DNA of 64,000 nucleotides from an uncultured Candidatus Saccharibacteria bacterium (lineage in GTDB: Bacteria; Patescibacteriota; Minisyncoccia; Phycocordibacterales; UBA918), in the NCBI GenBank assembly GCA_964502345.1, contig CAZCWH010000001.1, positions 167 to 64,166 of the forward strand, in the 5' to 3' direction. The notes beneath the pieces were generated by a model that saw only the letters and a list, made by a program, of their open reading frames with translations, was not told the DNA's origin and did no database searches. Positions within the stretch are counted from its first letter, which is position 1, and each line of letters begins with the position of its first letter. The position numbers and the translations under genes are program-made. Shown in pieces: positions 10,552-30,604 of the stretch.

Positions 10552-11904
10552 TTACTCTGACGTCGGTGATGGGATGACAGGCTGAGTCTCAAAGTTAGCT
10601 TTAACCTCATCATCAGAAAGTTTTCGTTCCCCATCACCTTCTTTGATCGTTATTTCATAATCTCGTTCTGGTTGAGACGCATCAGAAATATAGAGAACGG
10701 CCCCGACAAACCCGACAATAAGGAGTGCAACTGAAATGAAAAACATTTTATAGTGCACAATGAATGTCCAAATTGTACTGAGCACATCAAGAAATTCAGT
10801 TACTCTACTCAAGCGTCCCCGAAGATCCGCAGCACCACTACGGATCGGGGCTGATACTGCTCGATATGATACAAGCCGGGCAGGCTGCTTTTTAATTTCA
10901 AGTGTTTCCTCTCTCTCATTATTTGATTCTTCTGGGTGTACACCTGCAAGAGCAAGCATTCTGCGAATATACAATTTGATCATCCATGTCACCAATAAGA
11001 TAAATGCAATTACAATTGAAAGGGTTATGAGCGTTGCTTTTACAGGAATAACCCAGAAATACGTAACCGCATCAGTACTTTTAACCCCGTTTTCTCCATA
11101 CGCAAGTGTTACTATCGCCTTGTACCGCCCAATTTCAGTAACTGAGCCCTCTCCCTTCCAGGTAAACCTGAAGTCTCTAATACTTTTTGGTAACACGTTA
11201 CCAAAATGCGATTGGTTATTAATTGGTATGAGGCCTCGCTCAGTTCCCCACATATTGGTGATTACAATATGACCACGTGGCTGTAAATGCACATTGCCCT
11301 TATTTTCAAATCTAAGTGAGAACTCTGCTTCAGGTGTATCTACAATACTGTCGAGCACTCTAAACTCTCGAACTGAACCTAGCTCAGTAACATCTCCTTC
11401 AATACGTACAAAGAAGAGCGAAGTTATAGTTTGTGATGTGAGTAATTGAAGTTTTGCCTCAGAGTTTTTTGGTGGCTGTGTACCAACGAGTATTGCTGCG
11501 AAATGCCCACCAGGGGGTGCATCTTTTGGAATTTCGACAAAAAATGAAAGTTCTCTGCTTTGCTCGGGTGGTATGACATACGGCCCATTTGCAATCTCTA
11601 TCCACTCTGCAAGTGTGTTTCTACTTTCATCCTCGTCTTCTAGAACTGGAATAAATTTTCCTTGTCCCGATTCCCCTGAAGCTGCAAAATTTACAACTTC
11701 TGCATAAACGGTAATTTCGTATGGATTTCCATTCACAACCTTAACTGAGCTTTGCCAGATATCACCTCTTTCAACTGATAGTTGAAAGAGTGGTGGTGTC
11801 ACCGTGAGCACCTGTGCGTTTGATTGAGCATGTACTGAAAATGGTAGTGCAAGAAAAATGCTAAAGATAAAAACTATACTGTTTGTTACAACTCTTTGAC
11901 TCAT
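10552..11904 (-). CDS. DUF916/CscA-like cell-surface protein (signal peptide, beta-rich ectodomain, C-terminal TM helices)
   Basis: signal peptide, then xTVTPPLFQLSV...VKVVNGNP, which resembles the DUF916 N-terminal motif. TM near residue 290 and a second TM near 385. It overlaps the next gene by 4 nt. Confidence 0.45.
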   Translation of the reverse strand: MSQRVVTNSIVFIFSIFLALPFSVHAQSNAQVLTVTPPLFQLSVERGDIWQSSVKVVNGNPYEITVYAEVVNFAASGESGQGKFIPVLEDEDESRNTLAEWIEIANGPYVIPPEQSRELSFFVEIPKDAPPGGHFAAILVGTQPPKNSEAKLQLLTSQTITSLFFVRIEGDVTELGSVREFRVLDSIVDTPEAEFSLRFENKGNVHLQPRGHIVITNMWGTERGLIPINNQSHFGNVLPKSIRDFRFTWKGEGSVTEIGRYKAIVTLAYGENGVKSTDAVTYFWVIPVKATLITLSIVIAFILLVTWMIKLYIRRMLALAGVHPEESNNEREETLEIKKQPARLVSYRAVSAPIRSGAADLRGRLSRVTEFLDVLSTIWTFIVHYKMFFISVALLIVGFVGAVLYISDASQPERDYEITIKEGDGERKLSDDEVKANFETQPVIPSPTSE

Positions 11905-12935
11905 TGTTTTGTAAGATCTATGTCGTGATGGCGGGGGTCTGAACGAGATTCACGTATGCGAAGTGGAATCGGATCAGAATCATCCTGTATATCGTCGTCA
12001 AGATATTTTTTATGCACAAAGAAAGCAAGTACGACTACAAGAAGTGCAAGCGCTGCAAAAATACTCAGAAGCATTTTGAGCGGTATCACATAAAAAAATG
12101 AAGTGTCCTGGACAGAAGCTCGCTCAGTATTTCCATATTCAATATTGAGAAATGCTTTATATTTGCCAAAAAGTCCATCGACAGGTACCTCTACCGCAAA
12201 CTCCTTCTCCTCGCCTGCATTGATTGTCTGATTATCAGTGTTTACTGGAAGTGAAGCAACTTCAACCCCTTTGCTGTCATAGAAGATGATTTCGCCTTTG
12301 GGTGTAAGTGATTCATCTCCTGGATTTTTGATTGTGTACACTGCTGCCTGATTGCCCGCTCCCGTAATAAATCTATCAATTATAAACTTGCCTAGTTTTA
12401 GAAATTCAACCTTATTGTCTGCTATTGTTGCATTAATAATACTTCCAGGAGCATCACCACGCTTTACCTGCTCTGCTGCTTCATCTCTGTTTCTTCCATA
12501 CCCAAATCCTAAAAACGCATGGTATTCGCCAGGGACTGGACTCGGATGAACTCTGAATGTGACTTCTAAGGTTTTTGTCGCACCAATCATAAGATTAATC
12601 CCTTGCCTGCTGAACTCCATCCAGGAAGAGAGGGACGCGGAACGATCACTCTCAATTGGAGAATGATACTCTTCAATCATTCCCCCTTCATTGACAGAGA
12701 TGTTATTGATGCTCGGGTAGATGGTGACCGGAGAATCACCCGTGTTTGTAATGGTTATGATCTTAGTTACAATGTCGCGTGCTTCTAGATCTAAATCAAT
12801 GACTAGTGGAGAAACAAGGTAAGACGGAGCCGCGAAGCTGACCAAAGGAAATAGCAGTGAAAGACAAAAAAGTGTTATCGGAATCCTTGTTACCATACGC
12901 ACAGATAGTATCATACTAAAAAATTGGTACCGCAA
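11901..12935 (-). CDS. DUF916/CscA-like cell-surface protein with C-terminal TM and an acidic/basic tail
   Basis: signal peptide, beta-rich ectodomain, then TM (LLSIFAALALLVVVLAFFV) plus a charged tail. It lies immediately downstream of the 2471-aa giant gene with a 20-nt overlap. Confidence 0.45.
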   Translation of the reverse strand: MRYQFFSMILSVRMVTRIPITLFCLSLLFPLVSFAAPSYLVSPLVIDLDLEARDIVTKIITITNTGDSPVTIYPSINNISVNEGGMIEEYHSPIESDRSASLSSWMEFSRQGINLMIGATKTLEVTFRVHPSPVPGEYHAFLGFGYGRNRDEAAEQVKRGDAPGSIINATIADNKVEFLKLGKFIIDRFITGAGNQAAVYTIKNPGDESLTPKGEIIFYDSKGVEVASLPVNTDNQTINAGEEKEFAVEVPVDGLFGKYKAFLNIEYGNTERASVQDTSFFYVIPLKMLLSIFAALALLVVVLAFFVHKKYLDDDIQDDSDPIPLRIRESRSDPRHHDIDLTKQ

Positions 12936-15900
12936 TATACCTTATACTTGTGCCATATACACCAGCTGGCTGGGACTGACGGACCTTGAGTTTAAAGACG
13001 ATATCGGTTATTTCATTTGTCACGGGGACTGAACTATATGCCACCTCATCGAGAGTTGTGGTACTCATACGAGCGTACGTATCAATGGCAGAAAATCGTG
13101 CATTGCTGTTATATAGTGTGTCATCACCCGAATGGTAACCAGCACAACCAGTAGCCTCAGTGGAGCAACCTGTACTCCAATCTATTGGACTTGCATTTGT
13201 TCCTGTAATAGGTGGAATAATTGCTTCACTTCCACTCATGAAGTCATCTGTTGCTATCATAAAAATTCGATATCCTTCGGTAGCATTTGTAGTAACTCGC
13301 AACCGTTGAACTGCCTCTACATCTGAACCAATCGGAAGTATGCCAAATGGGATTGTTGTTGTACCAGAAGCAACGTCTGTCGTAATACCCTCAGTCGCAG
13401 TCGACGACGCAACGCCACCAACTGAAAATACGAGTGATGCTCCTTCAGTTACAAGTGACGGATACTGTTCACTATTGTTAGTAGACACGGGGACTCCCTG
13501 CACTACATCGTAAAGTCTAAAGTAGTACACAAGGTTTACGCGAGGACCTGCAGATTGAATGGTAAATTCGTATTCTGTAGCATCACCACCTTCATGCCGA
13601 AAACCACTCAACGCTTGAGGGGATTCATTATGCGTTCCACAACCGTTCCCAACACCCGCGACGCAACTGTCTGCATCAGAAAGTGTTCCGGTCGTTATTT
13701 CACTGTTATCGGTACCACCTCCATCTGCATAGCACCAGGTTGAAGTTGCTGTACACGTACTTGTTGCGACCACATCTGCAACAGTTTCGAAATTTGCATA
13801 CTCTGAGTACTGCAGTTTAAAACGCACATCATCACGTGATATATTTTTTACCTCTTTCACTACAACTCGGAGCTTGACCGCTTGACCATTTGCAATATCT
13901 ATTGGTGCAACATTTTCTATTGCAAGTGGTGTAACGGGTGTTTCATTATTTTCATCGTCGTACCAGCGCCAATTTTGCGTTTTGGGAGTAAAACTTGCAG
14001 TTCTAATTTTTGGATGTTGGTAATAATTTCCTAATAGTTCCCCATTTGTTTCAACCATTCGGAAACAGTAGTATGTTTCTGCATTTGCACCATTTTGTTC
14101 AACAATCCAATCATACTCAATGGTCTCATTCACCTGCACTGCATGCGCATTAGCATCAGTATCATTTTCTTCCTCAAGCGTACCAGCTACATCCGAAATG
14201 GAAGGAAGTACGAGATCGCCGAGCGTAGGAGGGTCTCCGGAAAGAAGCGTACCATCAGTTGTTCCTGTGGCATTAAAACCCCTCCAGATTGTACTTGAAG
14301 CAGCGTTCCCAAGTGTGTTCCAGTTTGCTTCACTAATTGCACTACATGTTGAGACCATTGGAGCATACTGGAGCTTAAATGCCTTAGTGCCAGCTGGCCA
14401 TGTGGCATTGAGTGCCTGAAGAGACATGCGAATACGAATCCGTTCTCCTTCACCTAGTGGTTCATCAGTAGCAGTTAAGGTTGTGTCTTCACCAAGATCT
14501 TGACCCCCGACAGGCCACGGGTCTGTTGGCTTGAGTGCATTGTTATCAACAAACAATTGATAATGGAGTTGCTCGAGTGCAAGCCCTGCAGTTGGCCATT
14601 CAACAATCTCCGCACGATACGTAAGCACTGAACCAGTATTACTGCGCCAGATTTCAAATGCAGTAGATGAAGCAATTGTTATACCTGCTATCGCTCGCGG
14701 GAAAATCGTAGTAGTGAGTGACGAACGAGCATTTGCAAATATTGATGCGTTTGTAAGGTCAGTCAGAACCTTTCCATTCGGAAGCGTGACGCTTACCGTA
14801 AGCGGAGCTGTGCCACCGGTCGTAAAACCATTTGACTGAGTGACTTCCATAGCTCCAGCTGCAGTTTGTGTATTTTCAATGATCCATGCGACTGAAGTCT
14901 GTCCAGACGGGGTTGTCGCACCAGCTTGAAGAAAGTACGACACAGAGCCAACACTAGAAAGCCACACCTCAGCACCAAATTCATCTGTTCCATTGAGTAG
15001 TCGATTATTTCTTTTCTGTGTATGTATAAACGTACGAGTTAGATTACCGAGGGCTGTAATTGCCTCAGTTTCAGTAACACCAGCTGCACTGTAGGTGTGT
15101 TCACTTCGTTGAACAACCCAATTCGGACCTTTAAATTCAACTACGGCATAACTTACCCGTACTGCATCCGTGCCGGTTGCTCCTCGCCAGAAATATGGTG
15201 TATCGTTATTTGCATCCCATGCTGAAGTACTCGGTAATGCATCATAGTTTGCCGAACCAGTATCAGGGCTTTGTTGCCCCGTAATAAATACAACTACATC
15301 ATCATCGTTTGTGATACCAGAAACTATACTGCCCGTAGCACTCGTAGAAGCTACTCCATACGCAATAAATGTTTGATCATGCACTATCATTTCATTATCG
15401 GAACCAGGCTCTCCAATAAATTCAATAATTTCCCAATCAACTCGTGTCGATGTTGCGACTCCTGTTCGTGCAATGGTCACTGAAGTCATGATATTTGAAG
15501 GGTTGAGTATATACGCTGTTGTGTTTGTTGCGTTTTGGGCTGCGGTATTCCCCGAAGCGTGACCAGCACCAGTAATACCGATATTTGTGATACGAATAAA
15601 TGCACTCGTTGAAGCGTTTGGTGTTATGTAGTGCACTCCAGCGACAAGTGTTGTTGAGGTAGCTCCCATGAGTATGGTTGCAGAGTTACGCTGGATTTCA
15701 AAATCTCGCTCAGGAGATGTGGTGAGCTCTGCATATTTTGAATACGCGTTAAGCTCAACACTCGAAGCAGCAAGCCTAAAACAATAGGTTATATCATTAC
15801 CCGCATCGACTGTTTGCTCAATACTAAACTCTGCTTCGAGGTACTCCGAACTCGTAATTGATGTAGTTGCAATGATTGATGATGTGTCCTTTATTGCACT

Positions 15901-18900
15901 GTTTGGTGAGAGGAAACTAGAGTTTTCATTTGATACCCCGCCCCCCAGTATAGAAATGTCTGTACTGTCATCACCATCCGTTAAATTAATCGAATCGTAC
16001 ATCTCCCAGGCGCCGCCAGTCGCACCCACATCAGTCCATGATGTTACAGCGCTACAGGTTGTGATTTTTGCTCCATACTCTAATCGTAATGCTCTGGCTA
16101 ATGAAGTAACAGTACCTTCGTTTGAAACTTGTAACCTCAAACGTACGGGAGTTGTCTGTGCAACATTTGAAATTGCCGTATCTTCCGCGTCACCCGAGAG
16201 CGAAGTTGCTGTTGTCTCATCTCCATTATCACTTCTCCAGTGGTAGTGGGTCTGTGTAAGGACTGCTCCTAAAAGTGTCGTTGACCCATTCATATCACGA
16301 GTAATTGAAGGACTTACTGAGCCTCCTCCAGAGACAATTAAATTTGATGATGGGCTTTCCATGATGATATCGATAGTTTCATCATTTTGTGCAGTGTCAG
16401 TCGTATCAAGTACGGTGTACAAACACATGGTCGACGTCGTCGAAATCGAGACTGACCCTGTAAATGTTGAGGTCCCATTGGGTCCTGAAAATCCATCAGT
16501 ATCTGTTGAACCAAACTGGGCTTCCCCTCCCGTATAACTATCACTTGCACAATCATAGGGAGCAGTGGTATCCAAATCATAATGAAGTTCTATATTGTCT
16601 AGATCGGTTTGTGCATCAACAGTCCCATTTTCTGAAATAGTAATGCTGGTAACATTGCGAGTGCTGACATTCTCAGTAATGACAAAAGCGCTCCCCACAT
16701 AGAAATCTGTTGCTGGTATTGTTGTCGTTGCTGTCTGACTTGTGGTTGCAATGGTCACGAGGACATCTGAAGAAATATTTGCACGCGGTATAACTGAATA
16801 CGCTGAGAGCGCTTGTCCTTGATTGGTAACTCTAAAACAGTATGTATTCCCTTCTACCGCGGTTGTTGAAGCTACTATTGAATACTCTAATTCAACAAAC
16901 TCTGATGATGACAGAGTAATTTGGCCGGTTTGAGATACAGTATCTTTTACACCACCATTTGGAGTAAGGAAGGTAGCATTTTCATCTGTCACAGCACCAT
17001 TGATTCCTGATGCTATATTTGTAGTATCTGCACCATCAGTTAAATTTAGTGTGTCGACCATATCAAAATCACCTCCTGCTGAACCAATGTCAGTCCATCC
17101 TGTTGCTGCTTCGCACGTGCTTGGATTTGGCGCATACTCCAAACGATACTGCATTGCTGGAGTTGAACTACTGCCCTCATTTGATACCTCTACACGGAGA
17201 CGTGTGGTTGATCCTTGTCGCATCGCAGTCAGTGAGGTGTCCTCAACTCCGCTCGTCTTTGAAGTGGCAGTCGTTTCATTTCCATCATCATTGCGCCAAT
17301 GATAGTGAACGAGAGTAGGAGTATCGTTATACACCAATGTTGTTCCAGAAAGATCTTGTGAAGCACTTGGCCCGGCACTACTACTCGTAACGGTCACATC
17401 GCTCGCTGGATTTGCAATAGAAATTTCAATTGTTGAACTACTGTCCGCTGAATCAAGCACGTCCATGACGGGATATACACAAAGTGCTTCAGTCGCATCT
17501 ACATTAACAGTCGAACCAGTAAACCCTGATGTACCATCTGCGCCAGAAAAACCATTACCATCCGTTGAACCAAACTGACTTTCACTTCCTCCATACGTGA
17601 CACTTGCACAATCGTATGGCGACACTGTATCGAGCTCATAAAACAACTTTACGTTAGCAATATCTGCCGAACCATCGATTGTTCCAGATTCAGTAATGGT
17701 AATTCCAGTAATATCATATGCTTGCGTTTCATCAGTATTGTAAAGACTAAACACACTACCGACATAGACATTACTCGTGCTTGCGTAGAGTGACGCAATT
17801 TGAGACCCAGTAGTTGCAATTGCAGTGCTTGGTAAATTTGCGAGTGTAGCACCATAGATATCATCGTCTGTATTATCAAACCATGTAACATACAAACGTT
17901 CACTATTGACGAATCCTACATCAACTCCATAGATATCATCTGGACTAGTATTTACTGGACCTTGTTCATATTCCCATGTAGTCATCCCATCAGTTGATCG
18001 TTTCCATAGTACATTCGCTGTGTTGGCTGTGTTTGCTGTGGCCTGTGCGCTATACGCTACATAGACGTCGTCATTGCTTGTATCCAGTGCAATGGCAACA
18101 TTTGTAAGACCAAGTACGACAGATGCACTCACATTAGTTTTTGGAGTCCACGTACCCGCGGAATAGACTGCTGTACGTAGCACGTCGTTCCCTGGTGTAG
18201 CATTATCTGCAATGTACGCGAGATATACATCTCCAGTCGTTGGACTCACAGTAACAGCCATACCTACGTCATATGTCGCATTATCGATTGCGTTTGAATC
18301 AATAGTCGTAGACGCCGCATCCCACGAGCCAGCTCCATTATTCCAAACTTTACTTTCAATATTTTCTGCAGCGGCGCCGACATCGCGATGAATTGCAATA
18401 ATGTTGCCCCCTGGAAGTGGGGCGAGTATTGCATAGTTGTTAGTGAGCCCAAAGGGGTTAGTTCCTGTTTCTGACCAACTTCCCGCAAGATTACAACTCG
18501 CAGAACATTCAACTACAAATGAATCAGATGCATCAATACTGCTTGCATAGATCGTCCCATCAGTTCCCTTCGTTATTGAAATCTGGTTGGTACCTACAGT
18601 AATCGTGCCTCCTTGAGCGTTTGTCGTACTTACCGGTGCACTACCCATAAGCAGTGTGTCGCTCGTCGTATCAAGCCGGTTGTACCAAACATCATCAGGG
18701 TTAGTATCGAGTGTCGCTATATGAATGTAATCTCCTGTATCTCCGGGCGTCCACTGGTCATACCATACTTGAATAGAGATACAGTCGACCTGAGCATCAA
18801 CCGTTGTGGTACCACTCCATGTCTGACCTCCATCAGTTGTTTTGCGGTACACACAGTATCCGGGTGCGTCAACAAAAAATTTGTACCCTGTCTGATCATC

Positions 18901-20331
18901 GGTAAAGACGGTTTGGGAGCCGGCTAACACATGTGATGTACCTGCGGTACTCACATTGCTATCTATTGTGTACTGGGTGTAGGAGTCATTACTATTGATT
19001 TCGTCAAAGGCAGTTGTGCGTACATGGATCCCTGGAAAAATATCAGCGAGAGTTTCTCCAAAAATATCATTATCTGTGTCATCAAACCACGTTGCATAAA
19101 TCCGTTCATCACTGACCAGATTTAAATTGATGCCGTACATATCATCAGCGCTCGTATTGAGTGGCCCCTGCTCATATCCCCAACTTGCCATGTCATCAGT
19201 CGACTTGCGCCAGTAAATATTTCCAGTCGCTAGTGTGAGAGGTGTTGTACGAGCACTATATGCTACGTACACATCGTCATTAGAGGCATCAAGTGCGATA
19301 GCAACATTCGTGATTCCTTTCTCACTATACCTCACAACCTCTTTTGTCGAGGTCCACGTACCACTCGAGTATCGTGCAGTGCGAATCTGATCGTCAGCTC
19401 CAAGGGTCGTATTACGTGCGATATATGCCAAATACACATCTCCTGTCGTCGGACTCACCGTAACAGCCATTCCAACATCATACGTAGTGTTATCTGTTGC
19501 ATTTGCATCTATGGTCGTCGATGCAGCGTCCCATGAGCCTGTGCCATTGTTCCAAACCTTACTCTCAATATTCTCTGCAACCGCAGCAACGTCACGATGA
19601 ATTGCTATGATGTCGCCACCTGGGAGAGGAGCGAGTATTGCATAGTTATTGGTAAGCCCAAATGGATTTGTACCGGTCTCAGACCAACTTCCTGCGACAT
19701 TACAACTTGAAGAACATTCAACAACAAATGAATCGGAGGCATCTATACTGCTTGCATAGATTGTTCCATCTGTTCCCTTCGTAATAGAAATTTGGTTTGC
19801 ACCTGCCGTAATGGTTCCACCCTGCCCCGTAGTCATACTAACTGGTGAGCTCCCCAAGAGGAGTGTATCCCCATTGGTATCAAGACGGTTATACCAAACA
19901 TCATCTGGGTTAGTATCGAGTGTAGCTATATGGATGTAAGTTCCAGTATCCCCTGGTGTCCACTGGTCGTACCAGACTTGCACTGAGATACAGTCAACCT
20001 GTGCATCGACTGTTGTTGTAGCGCTCCAGGTCTGCCCTCCATCCGTTGTTTTACGGTACACACAGTATCCTGGAGCATCAACAAAGAATTTGTATCCTGT
20101 TTGATCATCAATAAATACCGTTTGCGAACCCGACAGTATGTGCGACGTACCAACGGTACTTGCATCAGAATCAATAGTTGCCTGTGCAGCTTCAGCAGTA
20201 GGTACTATCCTCGTTAATAGTGCATCACCAAAACTGCTAAGCAAAAAAACGAGTATAAGAATAGACGCAACAGTCTTCTTCACTCGCAAGAGTTTTTTAA
20301 ATACAATACCTCCCATTGTCACCATTATCAC
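12916..20331 (-). CDS. giant secreted surface protein (2471 aa). It has two tandem BNR/Asp-box sialidase-like beta-propellers, repeated ~190-aa HYHWRxDDG...YCFR modules, and a conserved C-terminal module.
   Basis: signal peptide. Asp-box motifs TTDGGQTW and STDGMTTW occur in two ~390-aa units that are ~85% identical at the DNA level (about 17780-18980 and 19010-20180). The C-terminus ...GTSIRYIAVPIF is shared with the 378-aa protein. Confidence 0.85.
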   Translation of the reverse strand: MIMVTMGGIVFKKLLRVKKTVASILILVFLLSSFGDALLTRIVPTAEAAQATIDSDASTVGTSHILSGSQTVFIDDQTGYKFFVDAPGYCVYRKTTDGGQTWSATTTVDAQVDCISVQVWYDQWTPGDTGTYIHIATLDTNPDDVWYNRLDTNGDTLLLGSSPVSMTTGQGGTITAGANQISITKGTDGTIYASSIDASDSFVVECSSSCNVAGSWSETGTNPFGLTNNYAILAPLPGGDIIAIHRDVAAVAENIESKVWNNGTGSWDAASTTIDANATDNTTYDVGMAVTVSPTTGDVYLAYIARNTTLGADDQIRTARYSSGTWTSTKEVVRYSEKGITNVAIALDASNDDVYVAYSARTTPLTLATGNIYWRKSTDDMASWGYEQGPLNTSADDMYGINLNLVSDERIYATWFDDTDNDIFGETLADIFPGIHVRTTAFDEINSNDSYTQYTIDSNVSTAGTSHVLAGSQTVFTDDQTGYKFFVDAPGYCVYRKTTDGGQTWSGTTTVDAQVDCISIQVWYDQWTPGDTGDYIHIATLDTNPDDVWYNRLDTTSDTLLMGSAPVSTTNAQGGTITVGTNQISITKGTDGTIYASSIDASDSFVVECSASCNLAGSWSETGTNPFGLTNNYAILAPLPGGNIIAIHRDVGAAAENIESKVWNNGAGSWDAASTTIDSNAIDNATYDVGMAVTVSPTTGDVYLAYIADNATPGNDVLRTAVYSAGTWTPKTNVSASVVLGLTNVAIALDTSNDDVYVAYSAQATANTANTANVLWKRSTDGMTTWEYEQGPVNTSPDDIYGVDVGFVNSERLYVTWFDNTDDDIYGATLANLPSTAIATTGSQIASLYASTSNVYVGSVFSLYNTDETQAYDITGITITESGTIDGSADIANVKLFYELDTVSPYDCASVTYGGSESQFGSTDGNGFSGADGTSGFTGSTVNVDATEALCVYPVMDVLDSADSSSTIEISIANPASDVTVTSSSAGPSASQDLSGTTLVYNDTPTLVHYHWRNDDGNETTATSKTSGVEDTSLTAMRQGSTTRLRVEVSNEGSSSTPAMQYRLEYAPNPSTCEAATGWTDIGSAGGDFDMVDTLNLTDGADTTNIASGINGAVTDENATFLTPNGGVKDTVSQTGQITLSSSEFVELEYSIVASTTAVEGNTYCFRVTNQGQALSAYSVIPRANISSDVLVTIATTSQTATTTIPATDFYVGSAFVITENVSTRNVTSITISENGTVDAQTDLDNIELHYDLDTTAPYDCASDSYTGGEAQFGSTDTDGFSGPNGTSTFTGSVSISTTSTMCLYTVLDTTDTAQNDETIDIIMESPSSNLIVSGGGSVSPSITRDMNGSTTLLGAVLTQTHYHWRSDNGDETTATSLSGDAEDTAISNVAQTTPVRLRLQVSNEGTVTSLARALRLEYGAKITTCSAVTSWTDVGATGGAWEMYDSINLTDGDDSTDISILGGGVSNENSSFLSPNSAIKDTSSIIATTSITSSEYLEAEFSIEQTVDAGNDITYCFRLAASSVELNAYSKYAELTTSPERDFEIQRNSATILMGATSTTLVAGVHYITPNASTSAFIRITNIGITGAGHASGNTAAQNATNTTAYILNPSNIMTSVTIARTGVATSTRVDWEIIEFIGEPGSDNEMIVHDQTFIAYGVASTSATGSIVSGITNDDDVVVFITGQQSPDTGSANYDALPSTSAWDANNDTPYFWRGATGTDAVRVSYAVVEFKGPNWVVQRSEHTYSAAGVTETEAITALGNLTRTFIHTQKRNNRLLNGTDEFGAEVWLSSVGSVSYFLQAGATTPSGQTSVAWIIENTQTAAGAMEVTQSNGFTTGGTAPLTVSVTLPNGKVLTDLTNASIFANARSSLTTTIFPRAIAGITIASSTAFEIWRSNTGSVLTYRAEIVEWPTAGLALEQLHYQLFVDNNALKPTDPWPVGGQDLGEDTTLTATDEPLGEGERIRIRMSLQALNATWPAGTKAFKLQYAPMVSTCSAISEANWNTLGNAASSTIWRGFNATGTTDGTLLSGDPPTLGDLVLPSISDVAGTLEEENDTDANAHAVQVNETIEYDWIVEQNGANAETYYCFRMVETNGELLGNYYQHPKIRTASFTPKTQNWRWYDDENNETPVTPLAIENVAPIDIANGQAVKLRVVVKEVKNISRDDVRFKLQYSEYANFETVADVVATSTCTATSTWCYADGGGTDNSEITTGTLSDADSCVAGVGNGCGTHNESPQALSGFRHEGGDATEYEFTIQSAGPRVNLVYYFRLYDVVQGVPVSTNNSEQYPSLVTEGASLVFSVGGVASSTATEGITTDVASGTTTIPFGILPIGSDVEAVQRLRVTTNATEGYRIFMIATDDFMSGSEAIIPPITGTNASPIDWSTGCSTEATGCAGYHSGDDTLYNSNARFSAIDTYARMSTTTLDEVAYSSVPVTNEITDIVFKLKVRQSQPAGVYGTSIRYIAVPIF

Positions 20332-20335
20332 CTAC

Positions 20336-22255: not shown

Positions 22256-22993
22256 TTACTTAATAAATGAGTCAGCTAGAAGTATTGAAAAATCCTTAAG
22301 CGTCATGCGCCCGTCTCCATTAAAATCAAAAATCTTACCTTTTGTGAACCATGCTGCCATAAAGGCAGAGATGTCTTTAAGGTCCACTTCCCCATTACCG
22401 TCGAGATCAGTCACGAAGGCAACCTCAGCAGTTCCAATAAGCTCACCATCTACACCCGTTATGTAGATTCTTGTCTCGTCGTCCTCAACGTCCGCGACAT
22501 CAACAAGTGTTCCTAATCCATCTCCCGCAACAAATGTAGCGTTATCGGTGGTCACCTTAGCAATACCTGATTCGAGTGCTTTTGCATTGATTCGAGCAAT
22601 CGTATGCTCTCCAATAAAACCCTTTCTAAATGTTCCTCCCCGCATATATATGCGCCCATCCTTTGCATAGGGTTTCTCTGTCCACAGTGTAATGACTGAG
22701 GTCCCCGTATCAACACTTTCGATGCTCATCTGTGATTCTGGATACTTTATGGTTATATCAACAGCATTTACCGGTGTATGTGCTGTTGCGCGTACTTCTA
22801 TGTAAAAATTCTCACCTTCGAGTACTGAAGACGGACTTGTGTGAATTGAAATATATGAAGTATTTTCTGTGATTACAGAAGCAAGGCTTGCAAAGAGTGC
22901 CGTGAGTACAACCAGTGGAAATGCATATCGAACAGTCTTACCAGTTGTAAGCGTATATGATGGAAACATCATTTTCCAAATCTTTTCAAACAT
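22256..22993 (-). CDS. small secreted protein with an N-terminal cohesin-like domain and a C-terminal dockerin-like module
   Basis: cohesin-like segment VLEGENFYIEVRATAHTPVNAVDITIKYPESQMSIESVDTGTSVITLW. The C-terminus DLDGNGEVDLKDISAFMAAW...DFNGDGRMTLKDFSILLADSF is two Ca-binding dockerin-like repeats. Confidence 0.6.
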   Translation of the reverse strand: MFEKIWKMMFPSYTLTTGKTVRYAFPLVVLTALFASLASVITENTSYISIHTSPSSVLEGENFYIEVRATAHTPVNAVDITIKYPESQMSIESVDTGTSVITLWTEKPYAKDGRIYMRGGTFRKGFIGEHTIARINAKALESGIAKVTTDNATFVAGDGLGTLVDVADVEDDETRIYITGVDGELIGTAEVAFVTDLDGNGEVDLKDISAFMAAWFTKGKIFDFNGDGRMTLKDFSILLADSFIK

Positions 22994-22995
22994 AG

Positions 22996-23655
22996 TTACG
23001 TGCCAAGTTCAGCTCGTAAGTTATCAATCTGCTTATCAATAACGTTCAGTGTTTCTGATATGTTTTGTGCAGTACTTGCAAGCCCTTGCACGTTTTTACT
23101 TGATGTTTGCTCACCTTTTATAAGTGCGGTGATAATATCACCTTGTATAGTGGTAAGTTCTGTAAGATATGCACTTCGGTCTTTCTCAAGATCGATAATC
23201 TTCCCCCAGGTATCGAGATTATTGAACGAAACAGTTTTTGGGCTAATAACTTTAAGTAACGCAATACTTTCCTCTAATGATGCATACTCACGTTCGAGAC
23301 GCGACACCATGAGTGCCTTTCTTTCTGCATAGAAACTCCCGCAGCTTTCAAATAATTGTTGAACGATTATGAGATCCTTGTTTGTAAGTGACTCTAGGCG
23401 ACCCAAAAGGAGGTCAAATTCATTTCGTCTTGGACAGTCTTGAATAATTGCCCCAACGACACCATCTGCGCCATTCCAGTCTGTTGTATCAGCAAGTCCA
23501 ACCATGAGCTCGACTTGTGCATCAATGTTTTCTTGAATTTTTTGCACCACTTCTTCTTTTTGGTAATGTGCGACCCACGCACCGGCAGTAATTGCTCCTG
23601 CAATGATACAGAGGTGGATACTTATGAGTAAGTGCGAATTCAGAAAGGATTTCAT
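22996..23655 (-). CDS. hypothetical membrane-anchored coiled-coil protein
   Basis: 219 aa with an N-terminal TM. The remainder is predicted helical/coiled. Confidence 0.5.
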   Translation of the reverse strand: MKSFLNSHLLISIHLCIIAGAITAGAWVAHYQKEEVVQKIQENIDAQVELMVGLADTTDWNGADGVVGAIIQDCPRRNEFDLLLGRLESLTNKDLIIVQQLFESCGSFYAERKALMVSRLEREYASLEESIALLKVISPKTVSFNNLDTWGKIIDLEKDRSAYLTELTTIQGDIITALIKGEQTSSKNVQGLASTAQNISETLNVIDKQIDNLRAELGT

Positions 23656-23659
23656 GCTT

Positions 23660-25405
23660 CTATTGTACTATATGTTCGATATCTGATATTTCCTTTCGTA
23701 TCTTTGACCGTGCGTCAGCGAGATCTGTTTCAATTTGATCTATAAGAGTATTTTCTGCCTGTGTGAGCTTGCCTTTTCGTGACTCTTTCAGCTTTTCAAC
23801 ATTTTTGTGCATGTTGGTCATTACTTCGTCGAGCTCTATCTTCATTATACTCTCTACCTCAAGGGTTTCTTTCTCAACTTTTCGACGCCACACCGCAAGC
23901 CTGTGCCAGAGATACCAGCAACCAAAAATCAGTACAATAGAGAGTGAGATAAGCGGAACAAGTACAGAAAGCACCGTCACAACAAACGAACCAATTCGTA
24001 CGAATCCTGGTTCCTCAACTATAATTCTAATCGGATCTGAGACATCACTTGTTGCGCCGTGCATGTCTGTTGCAATTGCCGTTATGTCATACACACCAAT
24101 TTCAAATGGTGCGTCAGGGATGAATATGAATGCACCTCCCCCGTCGGATTTAAGTGTGTACGTTTTTGTAGCACCATCTGTTGGTGTCACTGACACCTCT
24201 ACCTGTGCGTCAGGACGTGTAGTACCCCTCAGTGCTGGGATTACTTCAGCGTTAATTCGTGATGGATACTCAGTAAAAAGTGGTTTCTCAAATGCTGTAA
24301 TATCAAATGAATATGTAGCAACTCGACTGTTACCTGCACCATCAAATGCTTCTACGATAAGTGTATGGTGTCCTGGCGCTATTGAAGGAAGCACGTACTT
24401 TCTCGTTTCTTCCTCATCTAGATATTCAAAAGGGTCAGTAGCATCAATCTGTATTTTGTATCGTGTTACAGGAGAAATATCTTCCACAGTAAACTGAAGT
24501 GTTCGCTTTGGATTTGATGGATCAAAATCAGTATCTTCTGAAACAGTAAATGCTGACGGCGCCTCACTATCTACCTGGATTTTAAAGTGGGTTACCCTAC
24601 CCCATCCCTCTGCATTTTTAAACTGAATATGGAAATACGATATGCCTTGTGGCAAATCCTCGAGTGTACGTGATCGAATGGGCTCGTCATATACGATGGT
24701 TGGTATTGTACTTGGAGCAGTGTCGAGTAATGTACGTACTGCAATAATTCCACTCGGTAGTTCCCAACTAAGCTCTGCAGCGTCATTCTTGTACCAGGTC
24801 TCCTGATTACCATGAGTCGTTGAAGTGACAACTGGAGCCTTTGGGGTATTGGCTGGTGCAATATACTCAGGCTCTGGATTACTCGTTACTGCAGAAATTG
24901 TATAGGAAGAACCAGTCATTGATGTCAGAACATTTGTTCCAAGTCCATCAGCTGCAAGCACTGAACCACTCTTAAAGGTGACTTTTGGATTACCTGCACC
25001 AAGAGGTCTAAACGTAATTGTTAAAATGTTCCCCGAGGCTCCGGTGTAACCCGTTGGTGATCCTCCTCCAAACGATATTGTGCCTAATGTATTTGAAAAA
25101 CTTGGCTCCTGTGTCCACAAATTAAAAATGGAACTCGCTCGAGAGACACTGACGACAGAAAGCTCCTTTGGGTTATAAGAAAGCTGACCATCTGCAGCAT
25201 TGACTGCTTTGTTTTGAGTATTAATGATCACATTTGCGGTAAATGTCCCTCCAACGGTATACACTCCCGTATCTGGACTCACACGAAGTGTTGCAGCATG
25301 TGCCGACTGTGTCATACAGATATACAACACACTCAAGAGACCAACGATGATGATCGTTCGTAAAAATACTATTCCTATACTATTCGATTTCAACATTGTC
25401 TTCAT
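23660..25405 (-). CDS. cohesin-domain bitopic membrane protein with a cytoplasmic coiled-coil tail
   Basis: signal peptide, then a cohesin-like domain (ATLRVSPDTGVYTVGGTFTANVIINTQNKAVNAADGQLSYNPKELSVVSVS...NLW). Ig-like domains follow, then a TM (IGSFVVTVLSVLVPLISLSIVLIFGCWYLW) and a ~90-aa charged helical tail. Confidence 0.7.
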   Translation of the reverse strand: MKTMLKSNSIGIVFLRTIIIVGLLSVLYICMTQSAHAATLRVSPDTGVYTVGGTFTANVIINTQNKAVNAADGQLSYNPKELSVVSVSRASSIFNLWTQEPSFSNTLGTISFGGGSPTGYTGASGNILTITFRPLGAGNPKVTFKSGSVLAADGLGTNVLTSMTGSSYTISAVTSNPEPEYIAPANTPKAPVVTSTTHGNQETWYKNDAAELSWELPSGIIAVRTLLDTAPSTIPTIVYDEPIRSRTLEDLPQGISYFHIQFKNAEGWGRVTHFKIQVDSEAPSAFTVSEDTDFDPSNPKRTLQFTVEDISPVTRYKIQIDATDPFEYLDEEETRKYVLPSIAPGHHTLIVEAFDGAGNSRVATYSFDITAFEKPLFTEYPSRINAEVIPALRGTTRPDAQVEVSVTPTDGATKTYTLKSDGGGAFIFIPDAPFEIGVYDITAIATDMHGATSDVSDPIRIIVEEPGFVRIGSFVVTVLSVLVPLISLSIVLIFGCWYLWHRLAVWRRKVEKETLEVESIMKIELDEVMTNMHKNVEKLKESRKGKLTQAENTLIDQIETDLADARSKIRKEISDIEHIVQ

Positions 25406-26471
25406 AGAGTGCTAACAGTTTTTGCTTGCGTCGCCAGAGCATGTATACAATAAGCCCACACACAACGATTACGAGCGTCCCCACAACAACCCACGTAATA
25501 ATTGTGCCCAAGGTTAATGTACGCATTGCCTCTGCAGGAACGAGGACCGCAACAGTTTCATTTCCTGCCTTATCAATTGCTTTGACACGTATTGTGCTAT
25601 TAAGTGTTTGATCAGTTAGGACATATGGGCTTTCAGTTGTCACCCATGGCGCATCAGCTCTCCCCCACCTAAATGCATAGAAATCTTCAAAGGGTTCTTC
25701 CATTACTTCATAGTGGTCGATTCCTGATTGTTTATCATGACTATTAAAGGATATGAAGTAGCGTCCACTAAACGCGAAATCATCTTTGAAAAGACTTATT
25801 AAAAAATCTGATGGCTTAGTGGTGTCCGTCTGGACACGATTTTTCCAGTCGTCTTCAGTTGTTTCACCTGCAGTGCCAAGTAGTGTGATTATGGCTCCCT
25901 GTGTACGTAGTGAAGCTGGAGTGCCGAAACCATCATGAATAAGCACTTGCGATGTCTCGTCAACCCAAATATTAGCTGTGGGTGCATCTCCAGCTCCGAT
26001 ACTAAAACCAGGTGACCGGAAGACAAGTTCTGCAATTATATTCGTGAGACTCGGATCACCAGCAATTCTTCCACAGTATCCACCAGGCAAGCCTCCTGCG
26101 AGTGTAATCGTGTGATTTTCTTCATCAATCTTAGGGTCCTCGAGCCAAATATTGAGAATTGAATCACCGCGCGATACATCAACGGCTCTGATGGCTGAAT
26201 CATACTTAATTACAGCATCGACTGCATTGATACATTCCCCTTCATCTGTATCAATTCTTAAACCGACCGTCACAGTATCACCTCGATTTAAATTTATTTC
26301 TCCTGGATCAAAATATAGAAGTGCAGCTTGTGTATGCACACATAACACCAAAAACAGTAGTGAAGAAAATAAAAAATAGGCGAAACCTCGCACGACATGC
26401 TGAATGGCGCTGTGCATATGTACGTATAGTATAACAGTCACTATAGTCTGACATAGCCCCACTACCCACAT
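25380..26471 (-). CDS. cohesin-domain membrane protein (N-terminal signal/anchor, cohesin-like domain, C-terminal TM)
   Basis: LLYFDPGEINLNRGDTVTVGLRIDTDEGECINAVDAVIKYDSAIRAVDVSRGDSILNIW is cohesin-like. The C-terminal TM is TIITWVVVGTLVIVVCGLIVYMLW. Confidence 0.65.
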   Translation of the reverse strand: MWVVGLCQTIVTVILYVHMHSAIQHVVRGFAYFLFSSLLFLVLCVHTQAALLYFDPGEINLNRGDTVTVGLRIDTDEGECINAVDAVIKYDSAIRAVDVSRGDSILNIWLEDPKIDEENHTITLAGGLPGGYCGRIAGDPSLTNIIAELVFRSPGFSIGAGDAPTANIWVDETSQVLIHDGFGTPASLRTQGAIITLLGTAGETTEDDWKNRVQTDTTKPSDFLISLFKDDFAFSGRYFISFNSHDKQSGIDHYEVMEEPFEDFYAFRWGRADAPWVTTESPYVLTDQTLNSTIRVKAIDKAGNETVAVLVPAEAMRTLTLGTIITWVVVGTLVIVVCGLIVYMLWRRKQKLLALYEDNVEIE

Positions 26472-26826
26472 AAAAAACCCATCTCGCTCTAAAGTGACCC
26501 AATGTCACTTTAGAGGAGGTTCTCGATAGTTTAATCCGCCTGAGGGCGGAGAGAACTATCATAGAACCAGAACAGCTTCTGTAAGAAGGTGGCTAGCCAC
26601 CACGAGCTTGGCTTTTCTTTTGAGCAAATCCATTTGCTCAAAAGAAAAACCCGTCTCGTGGTGCGACCCAATTTCTAAGGAGCGAAGCGACTATAGAAAT
26701 GGAAGTACTCCTAGATCAGCTCCGAACATCGCAGAATTCAAACATAGTGTAGCGGGTGGGATAAAAGAAAAACCCGTCTCGTGGTGGGAGATAGGGTTTT
26801 TCTAAACTCTTGTACTGTTGCTTGTT

Positions 26827-27963
26827 TTAGAACGTCGGTGTCGCAATGTAGCGAAGCTCCGTCGTATAGTCGTCGCCTGCTTCTTGGAGCGCCGAGATCT
26901 GAATCTGGTACCCGATGCGTGCGGCGCCTATTCCGGCAGTCACACCATCTGCTGGTCCCGTATGACCCATAACCACTATAGGTGTCGTGCTACCTGATAC
27001 CCATTCATCTGAACCAAACTCTTCTGGTGCAGAACGTGAAGTTGTAGCGTCAGTTGAGGTTAGACCCCAATGACCGTAGGTAGCGATGTCAGCAACAAGA
27101 GCACTTGGCCCTTGCCACGCAGTTGGTGTTTGCGTGTAGGCTCCATCGATGAATCCATCGATTATTCCGCCTGTTGTTGATTCGAGATCACCTGTTTGTT
27201 CTACTGTTACCGTGTAGCCGTGTAGGGCGTTTGTGGTAACAGAAAGATCTTGAGCAAGTGTTTTTGACGTATTGATTTCGAGTGTACCGAACGGTAGCGC
27301 TACATTAGTTGAAGTTGCTGCAGTCGTTGTTGGGCTCCCGTTCACGGTTGAGCTGGCTCCGACGCCAGTGACTGTGAATGTGAGCGAAGCATTGACGCTT
27401 GCAGATACCGTTACTTCATCAATGATAGCGACCCGAACTTGCCCTGAATCGGGCATGGTTCCACCGATTTCAATAAGATGCGATGTCGTTGTTGCAGTCG
27501 GGTTTGAGATCTGAGCATCCCCTCCTCCAAATAGACCAATCTCAATTACGAGTGGTGTACTTGATGCCTGCGGTACGTTACTCGGTGATGTGAGTGTTAG
27601 TACCTGAGCATTGAAGTAGGCTCCCCACACTCCACTTCCATTTACTGCCGCTACTGTTTGTGGAGTAGCTGATGCAGTGATGTCGATATCATCGAATGCC
27701 ATTGCTGGTATCGTGAAATCTACAGGAAATGTAATGGTGATCGTTGAACTTGCGAGCATACCAGTTGGCGTTGTAAACGCAATGGTGTGGTCGGAAGGCA
27801 ACCCTGGTGCAGAACTAGACAACGTATCACTTGCAAAAGTGATTGATGCAGCTTCCGCGGTGCGGAAGATGGTTGGAAGACCTGTACTCCAAAGGAATAC
27901 AGCGATACCAACAATCATTGCAACAGCCTGAAGAGTTCGCACGGTACTTGCCGTGTGAATCAT
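26827..27963 (-). CDS. secreted protein sharing the ~170-aa type-A C-terminal module with the 2471-aa giant protein
   Basis: 378 aa with a signal peptide. Its C-terminal half aligns by eye with the 2471-aa C-terminus (L.F.V.GV.ASST...PFG.L.I...VTTNA..GY... ...RYIA.P.F). Confidence 0.6.
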   Translation of the reverse strand: MIHTASTVRTLQAVAMIVGIAVFLWSTGLPTIFRTAEAASITFASDTLSSSAPGLPSDHTIAFTTPTGMLASSTITITFPVDFTIPAMAFDDIDITASATPQTVAAVNGSGVWGAYFNAQVLTLTSPSNVPQASSTPLVIEIGLFGGGDAQISNPTATTTSHLIEIGGTMPDSGQVRVAIIDEVTVSASVNASLTFTVTGVGASSTVNGSPTTTAATSTNVALPFGTLEINTSKTLAQDLSVTTNALHGYTVTVEQTGDLESTTGGIIDGFIDGAYTQTPTAWQGPSALVADIATYGHWGLTSTDATTSRSAPEEFGSDEWVSGSTTPIVVMGHTGPADGVTAGIGAARIGYQIQISALQEAGDDYTTELRYIATPTF

Positions 27964-28537
27964 AGGCTTTACGTTGTATTAACTACAGTATGTCGACTCT
28001 AATAATGAGCGGTTTGTATTGTTGTGCTCTTTCAACAATATTTACCTAGTAACCATGAGAGTCTCCACCCCTCTTTGATTCACTTTCGAACATACTACAC
28101 TCACCTCGACAACGCTCGGCTGTAAGCATTGGTACAGGATATTAATCCTAATACAAGTATTTCCTTCTCACATGTATGAAGTAAATACCTCGAAATGACT
28201 GTAAGTTCATTGTAACGTGAAGTTTTTTTATGAGCGGTTACTTATACACAAAATGGAGTAAAAATTCTTGTCACGGTAAATTTTTCACAAACCGCCAGCC
28301 TCCCTTGTACTCAAGGACTAAAAAGGCACCCCGTGTAATTGCAACTTATTTAACTAACTTGAGTTCCTTTCATCGCTTTTTCTTCATTGAAAAAGAAAAA
28401 GCGACGAACTCAGAAAATATCGGCCAGTTGCTTATGTCCAAATTGAAAGTTGGAGCAGGGCGTCTCCACAAAGCATCAGGAAAAGCATTGTGGAGACGGA
28501 CTCCTAAAGTATTGTCGCTGCGCTCTGTACTTTAGGG

Positions 28538-29662
28538 TCACCCGGTCCAGTTGAAGAGAAGGATTGAGAAGTCTTCGAGACTGACTCGACCATTTTGATT
28601 AATGTCTGCTGGAGGATTCGAGTTTCCACCTGGCGTATTCCACCAAAAAATCAGGATTGAAAAGTCGATTAGATTTACCTTCCCGTCACGATTGAGATCC
28701 GAGTTACTCGTCGGCCTCCCCTCAACTCCTACAAATAGTGACAGTGCCGTACCATAGGTACTTTCTGTTTTGAGGTTGCCTGTTCCTTCAATGAATCGTG
28801 CCTTTGCGGTGTGTGTATCTGCGGTGACGCTCGATGTATTGAAATCAACACTCCAATTTCCATTCGCGTCTGATGTTGTCCTCAGAGTTTGCTTTCCATT
28901 ATCAATTGATACTTCAACTGCAACACTTGGAACTGTTTGCCCACGCAAAATTATTGTCTCACCGGGATTAGGAGCATTATTGGAAGCACGTATAGTTGGT
29001 GGAATTAGCACACCGTTTACGTTTGTCACTGCACCCTGCGTTATATCAAACGTAGTACTGAATGTTGCAGATCGTGTCCCCGCAGTATCATTTGCCCAAA
29101 AGCTAAGTGATGCTGTACCAGGTTCAGTATCTGTATTAAATAAAAATTCTCCCCTACTATTTGTACGCACAGTCCCCACTGACTCACCATCAATTAAAAT
29201 AGTAACGGTGACATTCGGATACGCTTTCCCCTGCACAGTCACTTGCGTATCGCCAAGTTCGGTATCTCGTCCTCCTGACCCTGAATTTCCACCACCACCG
29301 GTCGATCCTCCTCCTGCATCTGCTTCTTCTTCTGTACAGTCTGCTGCACAAAAATCACCATCGGTATTGTTACCATCATCACACTCCTCTGAATAAATCG
29401 TTTGTAAAATAGCATCACCACAATATGGTGCCCACCTACAAATATCAGTGCACTGTCTTCCTGCGATTGTTGTGCTGTATTCCCCAGTATCTGTTGGGAT
29501 ATCACAGCTTTCTCCTGCATTGACAATAAGGTCACCACAAATACTAATGAGTAGCGAAGTCGTCGCAATACTTGATTGAGACGAAGCAACAAGAGGAACA
29601 AACATGGTGAGCAAACCACATATGCTTAGAATGAAATGATACGCAGGTCGTTTAGCGTACAT
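28538..29662 (-). CDS. secreted dockerin-bearing protein. Myxococcus-type Cys-rich repeats, a Gly-rich linker, two Ig-like domains, and a C-terminal dockerin.
   Basis: CGDxxxxxGEECDDGNNTDGDFCAADC-type repeats. The C-terminus DLNRDGKVNLIDFSILIFWW...DINQNGRVSLEDFSILLFNWTG is a dockerin duplicated-segment motif. Confidence 0.7.
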   Translation of the reverse strand: MYAKRPAYHFILSICGLLTMFVPLVASSQSSIATTSLLISICGDLIVNAGESCDIPTDTGEYSTTIAGRQCTDICRWAPYCGDAILQTIYSEECDDGNNTDGDFCAADCTEEEADAGGGSTGGGGNSGSGGRDTELGDTQVTVQGKAYPNVTVTILIDGESVGTVRTNSRGEFLFNTDTEPGTASLSFWANDTAGTRSATFSTTFDITQGAVTNVNGVLIPPTIRASNNAPNPGETIILRGQTVPSVAVEVSIDNGKQTLRTTSDANGNWSVDFNTSSVTADTHTAKARFIEGTGNLKTESTYGTALSLFVGVEGRPTSNSDLNRDGKVNLIDFSILIFWWNTPGGNSNPPADINQNGRVSLEDFSILLFNWTG

Positions 29663-29665
29663 ATG

Positions 29666-30604
29666 CTAACGTGCTCGCGAGCGTCGTGACTTCCCTATGC
29701 GTATGACAACAAACGCAAACGATATAATAAAGAATAATACTGGTGCAATCACAGAAAGCTTGTGCGGTAATGAAAGTCCACTAAACCCAAAACCAGCAGT
29801 CTGTAATGTTCCATACGGCAAGATACTCACGTTTACTTCACCATTTAACTTAACCTCCTCATCGTTCAATATCTCAAATCGTGCTAGGTAACTTCCTGCA
29901 GGGAGTCTTGTTGGCAATTCAGCGAACACAGTCTCAACTTTAAAAGGATCAACCTCATCTATTTTTCCCTTCTTATGAGTCTCTTCCAAAAGTACCTTGC
30001 CTGTGCTGTCATAGATTCTAAACACAACGTCACTTGGAGCGACTGGAACATTTCCTAAGTTTTCAAGAAGCATTTCAAAACGGATTTTTCCTGGGAAATA
30101 CAACCACCCAACTTTATGTCCTTCGTTTAAATCAGATATGCCAATTTTTCTTACTTTAAAATCTTTAATCTCCTTATCAATGACCGTAATATCTACATCG
30201 ATTTGTGCTCCTAGAGAAATATTTACTGCTCCACCAGACACCTGATCATCGGGGGCACCGGTCTTAATACGAATGTTACCAGTGTAATCCTTAAAATCAG
30301 CATCATCTGGAACCTTTACCCGAACGGTCATTGGAATTTTTTGCGCTCCCTGCGGTAGTAAAAATTCGTTTCCTTCAACAATAGTAAACCACTCATTGAT
30401 ACCAGGAACATCAACACTGATTGTTGCTTTAAGCGCAGTAGTTGGATCACTACGTACGAGATAAATTATTTGCTCATACTCAGAATTTCTTGTAAGACTT
30501 GCGTTCGATACATAGGGAGGCGTAATTCCAAATCCCGCATGAACAGTCGCAGTCACTGAAAAAGCAAGCAGTATAGCCAATAAAAGAGATCTATAGATTC
30601 CCAT
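29666..30604 (-). CDS. DUF916/DUF3324 (CscA)-like membrane-anchored cell-surface protein
   Basis: signal peptide, then GFGITPPYVSN... as a DUF916-like start. Two beta-rich domains, a C-terminal TM, and an RSRRSRAR tail. Confidence 0.5.
   Translation of the reverse strand: MGIYRSLLLAILLAFSVTATVHAGFGITPPYVSNASLTRNSEYEQIIYLVRSDPTTALKATISVDVPGINEWFTIVEGNEFLLPQGAQKIPMTVRVKVPDDADFKDYTGNIRIKTGAPDDQVSGGAVNISLGAQIDVDITVIDKEIKDFKVRKIGISDLNEGHKVGWLYFPGKIRFEMLLENLGNVPVAPSDVVFRIYDSTGKVLLEETHKKGKIDEVDPFKVETVFAELPTRLPAGSYLARFEILNDEEVKLNGEVNVSILPYGTLQTAGFGFSGLSLPHKLSVIAPVLFFIISFAFVVIRIGKSRRSRAR

Follow-up and report, generated by a model that had tools for sequence, protein, structure and literature searches.

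Attachment to host cells is the presumed way of life of bacteria of the Candidate Phyla Radiation (CPR), whose genomes encode many giant surface proteins that lack annotation. How could such a giant be held at the cell surface? The question is raised by a locus in a 64,000 nucleotide (nt) stretch of contig CAZCWH010000001.1 (positions 167 to 64,166; GenBank assembly GCA_964502345.1, uncultured Candidatus Saccharibacteria bacterium), referred to below as the window, where almost all genes lie on the minus strand. Two of these genes, coding for proteins of 378 and 2471 amino acids (aa), had been noticed to end in a common module, called type A here, which the original prediction took for a surface-anchoring or sorting element. 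We argue that the type-A module is probably a divergent C-terminal domain (CTD) of a Pam pilin, i.e., a donor-strand acceptor which would polymerise the 378-aa pilin-type protein and dock the 2471-aa giant at the tip of the pilus.

Both open reading frames (ORFs) exist as noted (Table 1), and the likeness of their C-termini was confirmed by pairwise alignment. BLASTP with composition-based statistics aligned residues 192-378 of the smaller protein with the C-terminal 174 residues of the giant at 33% identity and 45% positives (E=1e-10), so that the last ~175-187 aa are covered. The Smith-Waterman score of the module pair is 156, compared to 41 +/- 7 (maximum 77) for 1000 composition-preserving shuffles (z=16). 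Chance or compositional similarity is ruled out by these two results. The N-terminal domain of the 378-aa protein scored 56 against the rest of the giant, with shuffles at 52 +/- 6; this is no similarity beyond chance, and the two proteins are otherwise unrelated, just as had been claimed. A two-sequence hidden Markov model run over the six-frame translation of the window found these two copies only. The location proposed for the giant's module (12916..13440) coincides with the BLAST boundary. The one proposed for the 378-aa protein (26827..27351) does contain the module, but the module starts about 13 codons further upstream. Five columns (N, G, W, G and Q) are invariant in 62 homologues, contrary to what a T/S-rich resemblance without conserved columns would give, and the motifs PFG.L, VTTNA..GY, LQEAG.Y and Y[IV]A.P.F-COOH recur. 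The module is real, restricted to C-termini and no T/S-rich artefact.

The proteins end in ...ATPTF or ...AVPIF, without a hydrophobic tail. This bears on the idea that the module is a cleaved C-terminal secretion or sorting signal, be it of the CTD type of the type IX secretion system (T9SS), LPXTG, PEP-CTERM or novel. The extreme C-terminal position in secreted proteins is the one observation that speaks for it. The module, however, is ~175-187 aa long, folds with high confidence and has neither a terminal hydrophobic helix nor a basic tail. It matches no sorting-signal family in Pfam or NCBIfam, and both proteins already carry ordinary Sec signal peptides at their N-termini. Pfam scans of the window's proteins revealed no sortase, exosortase or T9SS genes either. 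We regard a sorting signal as extremely improbable, and with no LPXTG- or PEP-CTERM-type signal at hand this part of the original prediction has to be given up. The anchoring part survives as far as a discrete, conserved C-terminal module for surface display is concerned; a wall or S-layer binder it does not appear to be, since the modules match no such family (SLH, LysM, SH3b, CWB) in Pfam or NCBIfam.

The C-terminal position holds throughout a large family. A first profile built from the two window modules retrieved 100 proteins, all of them unnamed or "hypothetical" and originating, where the source organism is named, from Pacebacteria/Paceibacterota, Kaiserbacteria and Falkowbacteria. The module ends within 2 residues of the C-terminus in 98 of these 100 close homologues, and the terminal residue is Phe or Tyr in 97, typically as ...ATP[TV]F. 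A second profile, made from 23 diverse modules, was searched against 1.84 billion representatives and returned at least 2,509 clusters (at 50% identity) with E<=1e-3, 1,422 with E<=1e-10 and 440 with E<=1e-30; in all 150 of the matches listed the module occupies the extreme C-terminus. Carrier lengths are bimodal (~340-400 aa and 1,000-3,762 aa): the 144 newly returned carriers include 82 of 330-470 aa, 35 of 900 aa or more (the longest 3,762 aa) and 27 shorter or intermediate ones. CTD-only database entries look like truncated gene calls. Two subfamilies can be told apart, the pilin type by T-Y-G-H-W-G and the giant type by two conserved cysteines (GC...GC.GYH), which are present in the module of the 2471-aa giant.

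Only one family is consistently recognised in the module. It is NCBIfam NF058581.1 (CPR_Pam_pilin_C, "Pam pilus system pilin subunit"), which the giant's module matches with 38.5 bits (E=1.1e-9, model positions 3-148 of 148; E=1.9e-8 in a second scan of the giant) and the module of the 378-aa protein with 19.5 bits (E=8e-4, model positions 5-148 of 148). Both matches end exactly at the protein C-terminus. The same model is matched by 52 of the 62 relatives, with a best E-value of 3.6e-13, while no other NCBIfam family recurs and Pfam gives nothing consistent on the two modules and the 62 relatives. At the level of sequence, homology to NF058581 is therefore supported, and curated membership is not reached.

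NF058581 derives from a 2026 preprint describing the cryo-electron microscopy (cryo-EM) of filaments of Ca. Mycosynbacter amalyticus (10.64898/2026.03.03.709456). According to it, the Pam pilin C-domain is an incomplete immunoglobulin (Ig)-like domain, an open beta-barrel completed by a beta-strand of the neighbouring subunit. The filament-forming PamA and PamB, which are among the most abundant proteins, consist of nine N-domain strands, a linker and the C-domain, and the most conserved parts of Pam pilins are the donated linker and the CTD site. PamC and PamD are FimC/PapD-like chaperones with a C-terminal transmembrane (TM) helix, PamT is a CTD-only tip pilin, and PamR is a membrane-anchored terminator with two fibronectin type III (FnIII) domains, an N-terminal strand and a C-terminal TM helix. 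Assembly is usher-less. The preprint makes no mention of WxL, DUF916, Paceibacteria or adhesins (10.64898/2026.03.03.709456).

The 378-aa protein follows the plan of PamA, PamB and PamE: a Sec signal peptide, a nine-strand N-terminal beta-sandwich, a single linker strand and a C-domain. Its mature form was modelled by AlphaFold 2 (AF2) from a 62-sequence alignment with a mean confidence score (pLDDT) of 95.1. By DSSP, the N-terminal 130 residues of the model form nine strands; they are followed by a strand QVRVAII and then, in the monomer, by an unpaired segment DEVTVSASVNA, after which the C-domain, again of nine strands, begins with SLTFTV. Among 51 pilin-type sequences the mean information per column is 2.6 bits in the linker, 2.8 in the CTD and 2.1 in the N-domain, so the linker and the CTD are the most conserved parts of this family, as they are in Pam pilins. 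VTVSASVN is one of the ten most conserved 8-mers of the family, with conservation at its alternate positions V, V, A and V. Judging from the sequences, such alternation is what a strand with one face buried would show, and by analogy with the Pam preprint we infer that the linker would act as the donor strand.

The pilin-type gene is flanked by spacers of 355 nt (26472..26826) and 574 nt (27964..28537), which are unusually long for this tight array with its often overlapping genes. The spacers fit an independent, possibly highly expressed major subunit. In a promoter and terminator scan of 9900-29000, promoter-like sites were fewer than in shuffled sequences.

Membrane-anchored FimC/PapD-like chaperones encoded together with the pilins are another trait of the Pam system, and two candidates lie directly downstream of the giant. 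The stop codon of the giant overlaps the ORF of the first by 20 nt, given the listed TTG start, and the stop codon of the first overlaps the start of the second by 4 nt. Their products (Table 1) are paralogous to each other (24% identity over 311 aa, E=1e-15), each with an ectodomain of about 250-265 aa between a signal peptide and a TM helix. Both match the Pfam family WxLIP_PGBD (DUF916) weakly (E=6e-5 and 3e-3), as do 31 of their 66 relatives. The closest folds to the modelled chaperone-like neighbour are the Enterococcus WxLIP and pilus chaperones, namely CfaA (12.3), SafB (11.3), FimC (11.1), CsuC (10.9), YadV (10.5), CupB2 (10.0) and PapD (9.8), with structural alignments to the chaperones spanning 155-185 residues, i.e., both domains. 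Since the sole consistent match of the module is the Pam pilin CTD, and since the adjoining genes encode PapD/WxLIP-like membrane-anchored chaperones, we propose that the module is a polymerisation and docking domain working by donor-strand exchange.

Beyond its first TM helix (residues ~320-450), the 450-aa chaperone-like protein continues with a helical segment and a second TM helix as well as a small beta-hairpin plus helix. These extra C-terminal parts are not found in the descriptions of PamC/PamD and WxLIP; some relatives of the protein have a LytR_C domain (PF13399) instead. A tblastn search of plasmids with the chaperone-like ectodomain matched no WxL plasmids and gave only a weak match on plasmid CP058536.1 of Deinococcus sp. 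D7000 (80340..81242), a hypothetical protein with 22% identity over 95% of the ectodomain (E=3e-4). The gene is part of a cluster coding for secreted hypothetical proteins (189, 291 and 1018 aa), which may be a related system outside the CPR.

The pairing of module and chaperone-like genes was followed in 80 related loci from Patescibacteria metagenome-assembled genomes (MAGs), found with a narrow pilin-type alignment. Of these 80, 53 contain a chaperone-like gene; in 43 cases a CTD-bearing gene on the same strand precedes it at a distance of no more than 300 nt. In four of the loci (L001, L002, L003 and L006) the gene order follows that of the window from the ATP-binding cassette (ABC) transporter to the giant, and giant orthologues occur in the colinear L001, L003 and L006. 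These observations are difficult to reconcile with the view that the module is just an Ig-like stalk or carbohydrate-binding domain of a generic kind, C-terminal by coincidence and without a role in assembly or anchoring: a passive spacer would account neither for the tight pairing with a chaperone-like gene nor for the specific similarity to NF058581. Together with the extreme C-terminal position in 98 of 100 and in 150 of 150 listed relatives and with the aromatic end, they make such a domain very unlikely.

The DUF916 matches raise another alternative, which is the closest one to the original idea of anchoring: the module could be a WxL-like domain binding peptidoglycan non-covalently and held by the WxLIP-like neighbour, with no filament involved. 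WxL clusters of Firmicutes comprise a small WxL protein, a large WxL protein and WxLIP (DUF916-DUF3324-TM) (PMC9772566, PMC10599100; PDB 9i1y), and the "large WxL" proteins can be likened to the giant as an adhesin-type partner. However, no sequence similarity between the module and the WxL domain (PF13731) could be detected, this family being matched by none of the 62 members even at E<=1, nor by the two window modules. The dual Trp-x-Leu motif is absent: the pilin type has a single W-G-L, the giant type has no W-x-L at all, and the motif at the C-terminus is [RT]-Y-[IV]-A. What the module does match is the Pam pilin model, and the small protein has an additional N-domain and a conserved linker, like the filament-forming PamA and PamB. 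WxL proteins are described as peptidoglycan-bound rather than filamentous, and they belong to a phylum other than that of the window. We therefore consider WxL-type binding rather unlikely. Peptidoglycan binding by WxL domains is itself largely predicted, and AF2 models there show a WxLIP strand inserting into the WxL domain (PMC9772566, PMC10599100), so the WxL and the donor-strand readings may describe the same mechanism.

What would a pilin CTD do on a protein of 2471 aa? The cleavage region of the giant's signal peptide (...PTAEA/AQ) is similar to that of the pilin (...RTAEA/AS). Between the signal peptide and the CTD there are a weak BNR/sialidase-like segment near residues 299-394 and about 2,200 aa of beta-rich domains with no assigned family; self-BLAST detected no internal repeats. 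Three other giants gave almost no Pfam matches. Directly in front of the giant's CTD the sequence reads ...YYFRLYD...EQYP/SLVTEGA, not the pilin linker ...RVAIIDxVxVxAxV. The pilin linker is likewise absent from 34 of 35 representative giants, where ...YYFRLYD...YP/SLxTEGA is found in its place. The listed full-length pilin-size proteins do carry the linker, and a few pilin-size entries show the giant-type junction. By analogy, the acceptor-only plan of the giant (signal peptide and CTD) appears to follow a PamT-like logic: a subunit with an acceptor domain and no donor strand could be placed only at the distal end, which suggests that the giant may ride the pilus tip as an adhesin.

The proposed assembly would proceed as follows. 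After Sec export, the membrane-tethered chaperones would cap the open CTDs and hand them over by donor-strand exchange. The linker strand of the first pilin would complete the CTD of the giant, the next pilin would complete the CTD of the previous one, and head-to-tail repetition of this step would give a thin pilus. The giant, held by the first pilin's strand and having an acceptor domain with no linker of its own, could not extend the chain. In this way ~2,300 residues of a beta-rich, BNR-containing protein would be presented at the distal tip as an adhesin. The base of the pilus may stay tethered via a chaperone or via an anchor not yet recognised. No usher is included in this scheme because these bacteria have no outer membrane, and Pfam scans of the window's proteins found no usher family.

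Several observations weigh against a Pam-type pilus with the giant at its tip. Both window modules score below the curated cut-off of NF058581 (55 bits), so the NCBI pipeline would not call them Pam pilins. Between the pilin gene and the giant lie five genes, of which three encode cohesin or dockerin domains. Nothing in the window was recognised as a PamR-like terminator or anchor or as a PamT-like single-domain tip pilin: the TM proteins adjoining the pilin are cohesin-like, and the fn3 protein encoded at 35312..36823 lacks a TM helix at its C-terminus. None of the other Pam families turned up when the remaining neighbours were scanned with NCBIfam. Fold searches with the pilin model returned generic Ig-like and cohesin-like matches only. 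Sequence searches of the PDB with both proteins, two profiles and the N-domain of the chaperone-like protein gave chance matches only, detecting neither PamA/PamB nor WxLIP, and the PamA and PamB structures (PDB 25PZ and 25QA) were absent among the matches from the PDB copy searched.

The comparison with the Pam pilus shows likeness as well as differences. Like the Pam pilus, the system is restricted to the CPR as far as its named homologues go: these and the 80 genome loci all belong to Patescibacteria MAGs. Both lack an usher and come with genes for membrane-anchored PapD-like two-domain chaperones. The lineage of the Pam pilus is Saccharimonadia or Microgenomatia, while the relatives found here carry names of the Parcubacteria group (Kaiserbacteria/Paceibacteria); altogether the names include Kaiserbacteria, Paceibacteria/Paceibacterota, Parcubacteria, Nomurabacteria and Falkowbacteria, along with some third-party annotation assemblies labelled Saccharibacteria. 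The acceptor domain is here fused also to giants of 1,000-3,762 aa, while the tip pilin PamT is a single domain. One of the chaperone-like proteins differs from the Pam chaperones by its second TM helix and a cytoplasmic helical segment. Finally, the Pam locus adjoins ATP synthase genes, and the locus in the window is interleaved with cohesin and dockerin genes.

The proposed logic is also that of the tip adhesins of chaperone-usher pili (FimH, PapG), in which an acceptor-only domain carries an adhesive N-terminal part and is capped by a two-domain chaperone. Chaperone-usher pili, however, have an outer membrane and an usher, both missing in the proposed system. Their pilins donate an N-terminal extension rather than an internal linker between two domains, their chaperones are not tethered by a TM helix, and their adhesive part is about ten times smaller than that of the giant.

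Table 1. Positions of the pilin-type protein, the giant and the chaperone-like genes in the window (slash, signal peptide cleavage site).
Feature	Coordinates	Strand	Basis or composition
Pilin-type protein, 378 aa	26827..27963	-	ORF list
Signal peptide of the pilin-type protein, residues 1-38, ...FRTAEA/AS	27850..27963	-	hydrophobic segment and A-x-A site read from sequence
Stretch of the pilin-type protein between signal peptide and linker	27460..27849	-	
Linker, candidate donor strand, residues 169-191, ...GQVRVAIIDEVTVSASVNA	27391..27459	-	AF2 model, conservation
Type-A module (CTD) of the 378-aa protein, residues 192-378 and stop codon	26827..27390	-	BLASTP, NF058581 match, AF2 model
Giant, 2471 aa, proposed tip adhesin	12916..20331	-	signal peptide, BNR-like segment, CTD without pilin linker
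Type-A module (CTD) of the 2471-aa giant, residues 2298-2471 and stop codon	12916..13440	-	BLASTP, NF058581 match, diverse-module alignment
Chaperone-like gene 1, 344 aa (database product P0246: 331 aa)	11901..12935	-	signal peptide, ~250-aa ectodomain, C-terminal TM helix, short tail
Chaperone-like gene 2, 450 aa	10552..11904	-	signal peptide, beta-sandwich domains (33-142, 159-285), TM helix, helical segment, second TM helix

The rest of the window contains another pair of proteins with a common C-terminal part. This type-B module of ~240 aa is found in a 627-aa protein (30718..32601, minus strand) and in a giant of 7248 aa (37020..58766, minus strand); the two copies are 32% identical (E=2e-17), and the module is C-terminal in all 27 homologues from the related loci. 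Directly downstream of the 627-aa gene lies a gene for a 312-aa protein (29666..30604, minus strand) with a signal peptide and a TM helix, which is weakly similar to the chaperone-like proteins (E=0.004). The type-B genes may constitute a second, parallel set of a small protein, a giant and a chaperone. The type-B motifs (PYG.LEPG, STTP.E and AG.Y..T) are colinear with those of type A. A relationship between the two modules was considered and rejected as unproven (hhalign probability 1%, E=0.046), and type B has no match to NF058581.

A MacB/FtsX-type ABC transporter pair (32674..35305, minus strand) is located between the two giant blocks and is kept in the colinear loci. Upstream of the block of the 7248-aa giant lie a gene for Hsp20 and an ORF whose match is to the C-terminal end of the FGE-sulfatase family (60379..60840 and 63505..63972, minus strand). 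In four of the related loci (L016, L019, L024 and L025) a second pilin-type paralogue with a type-A CTD is situated ~3 kb upstream of the homologue of 63505..63972, which in the window would correspond to a position just beyond 64000. By its position, this paralogue therefore heads the block containing the 7248-aa giant. Two pilin-type genes 40-50 kb apart are found on many MAG contigs.

Cohesin and dockerin genes are interleaved with the pilus-like ones at 22256..26471, 28538..29662, 58850..60382 and 61171..63042, all on the minus strand. They code for three cohesin-like membrane-anchored proteins (363, 581 and 510 aa) together with three proteins that have a dockerin domain at the end (245, 374 and 623 aa), and their homologues occur in most of the related loci. 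The island would thus seem to include a cohesin-dockerin surface-display system as well.

Overall, the type-A module is best filed as a divergent, otherwise ordinary member of the family described in 2026. Every homologue with a named source is currently called a hypothetical protein, and the window modules score below the NCBI naming threshold. If the interpretation given here is true, the Pam pilus, known from one cultured species of Saccharimonadia, extends to the large Parcubacteria group. Beyond this, we speculate that giants of the Parcubacteria branch could be loaded as tip adhesins on usher-less Pam-type pili, and that Pam pili and the WxL/WxLIP systems of Firmicutes might be forms of one ancient donor-strand system, related through its chaperones to chaperone-usher pili, with WxL domains acting as strand acceptors too. 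Both the giant-tip architecture and the WxL link are tentative extensions that we infer from the likenesses described above, and taken as a whole this wider picture is possible but doubtful. A Pam-type strand acceptor, if the type-A module is one, would tie the WxL clusters of lactobacilli, enterococci and Listeria to pilus assembly via a shared WxLIP/PapD-like chaperone fold, and it would provide a concrete prediction for giants of 1,000-3,762 aa, namely that a pilus tip displays them to the host.

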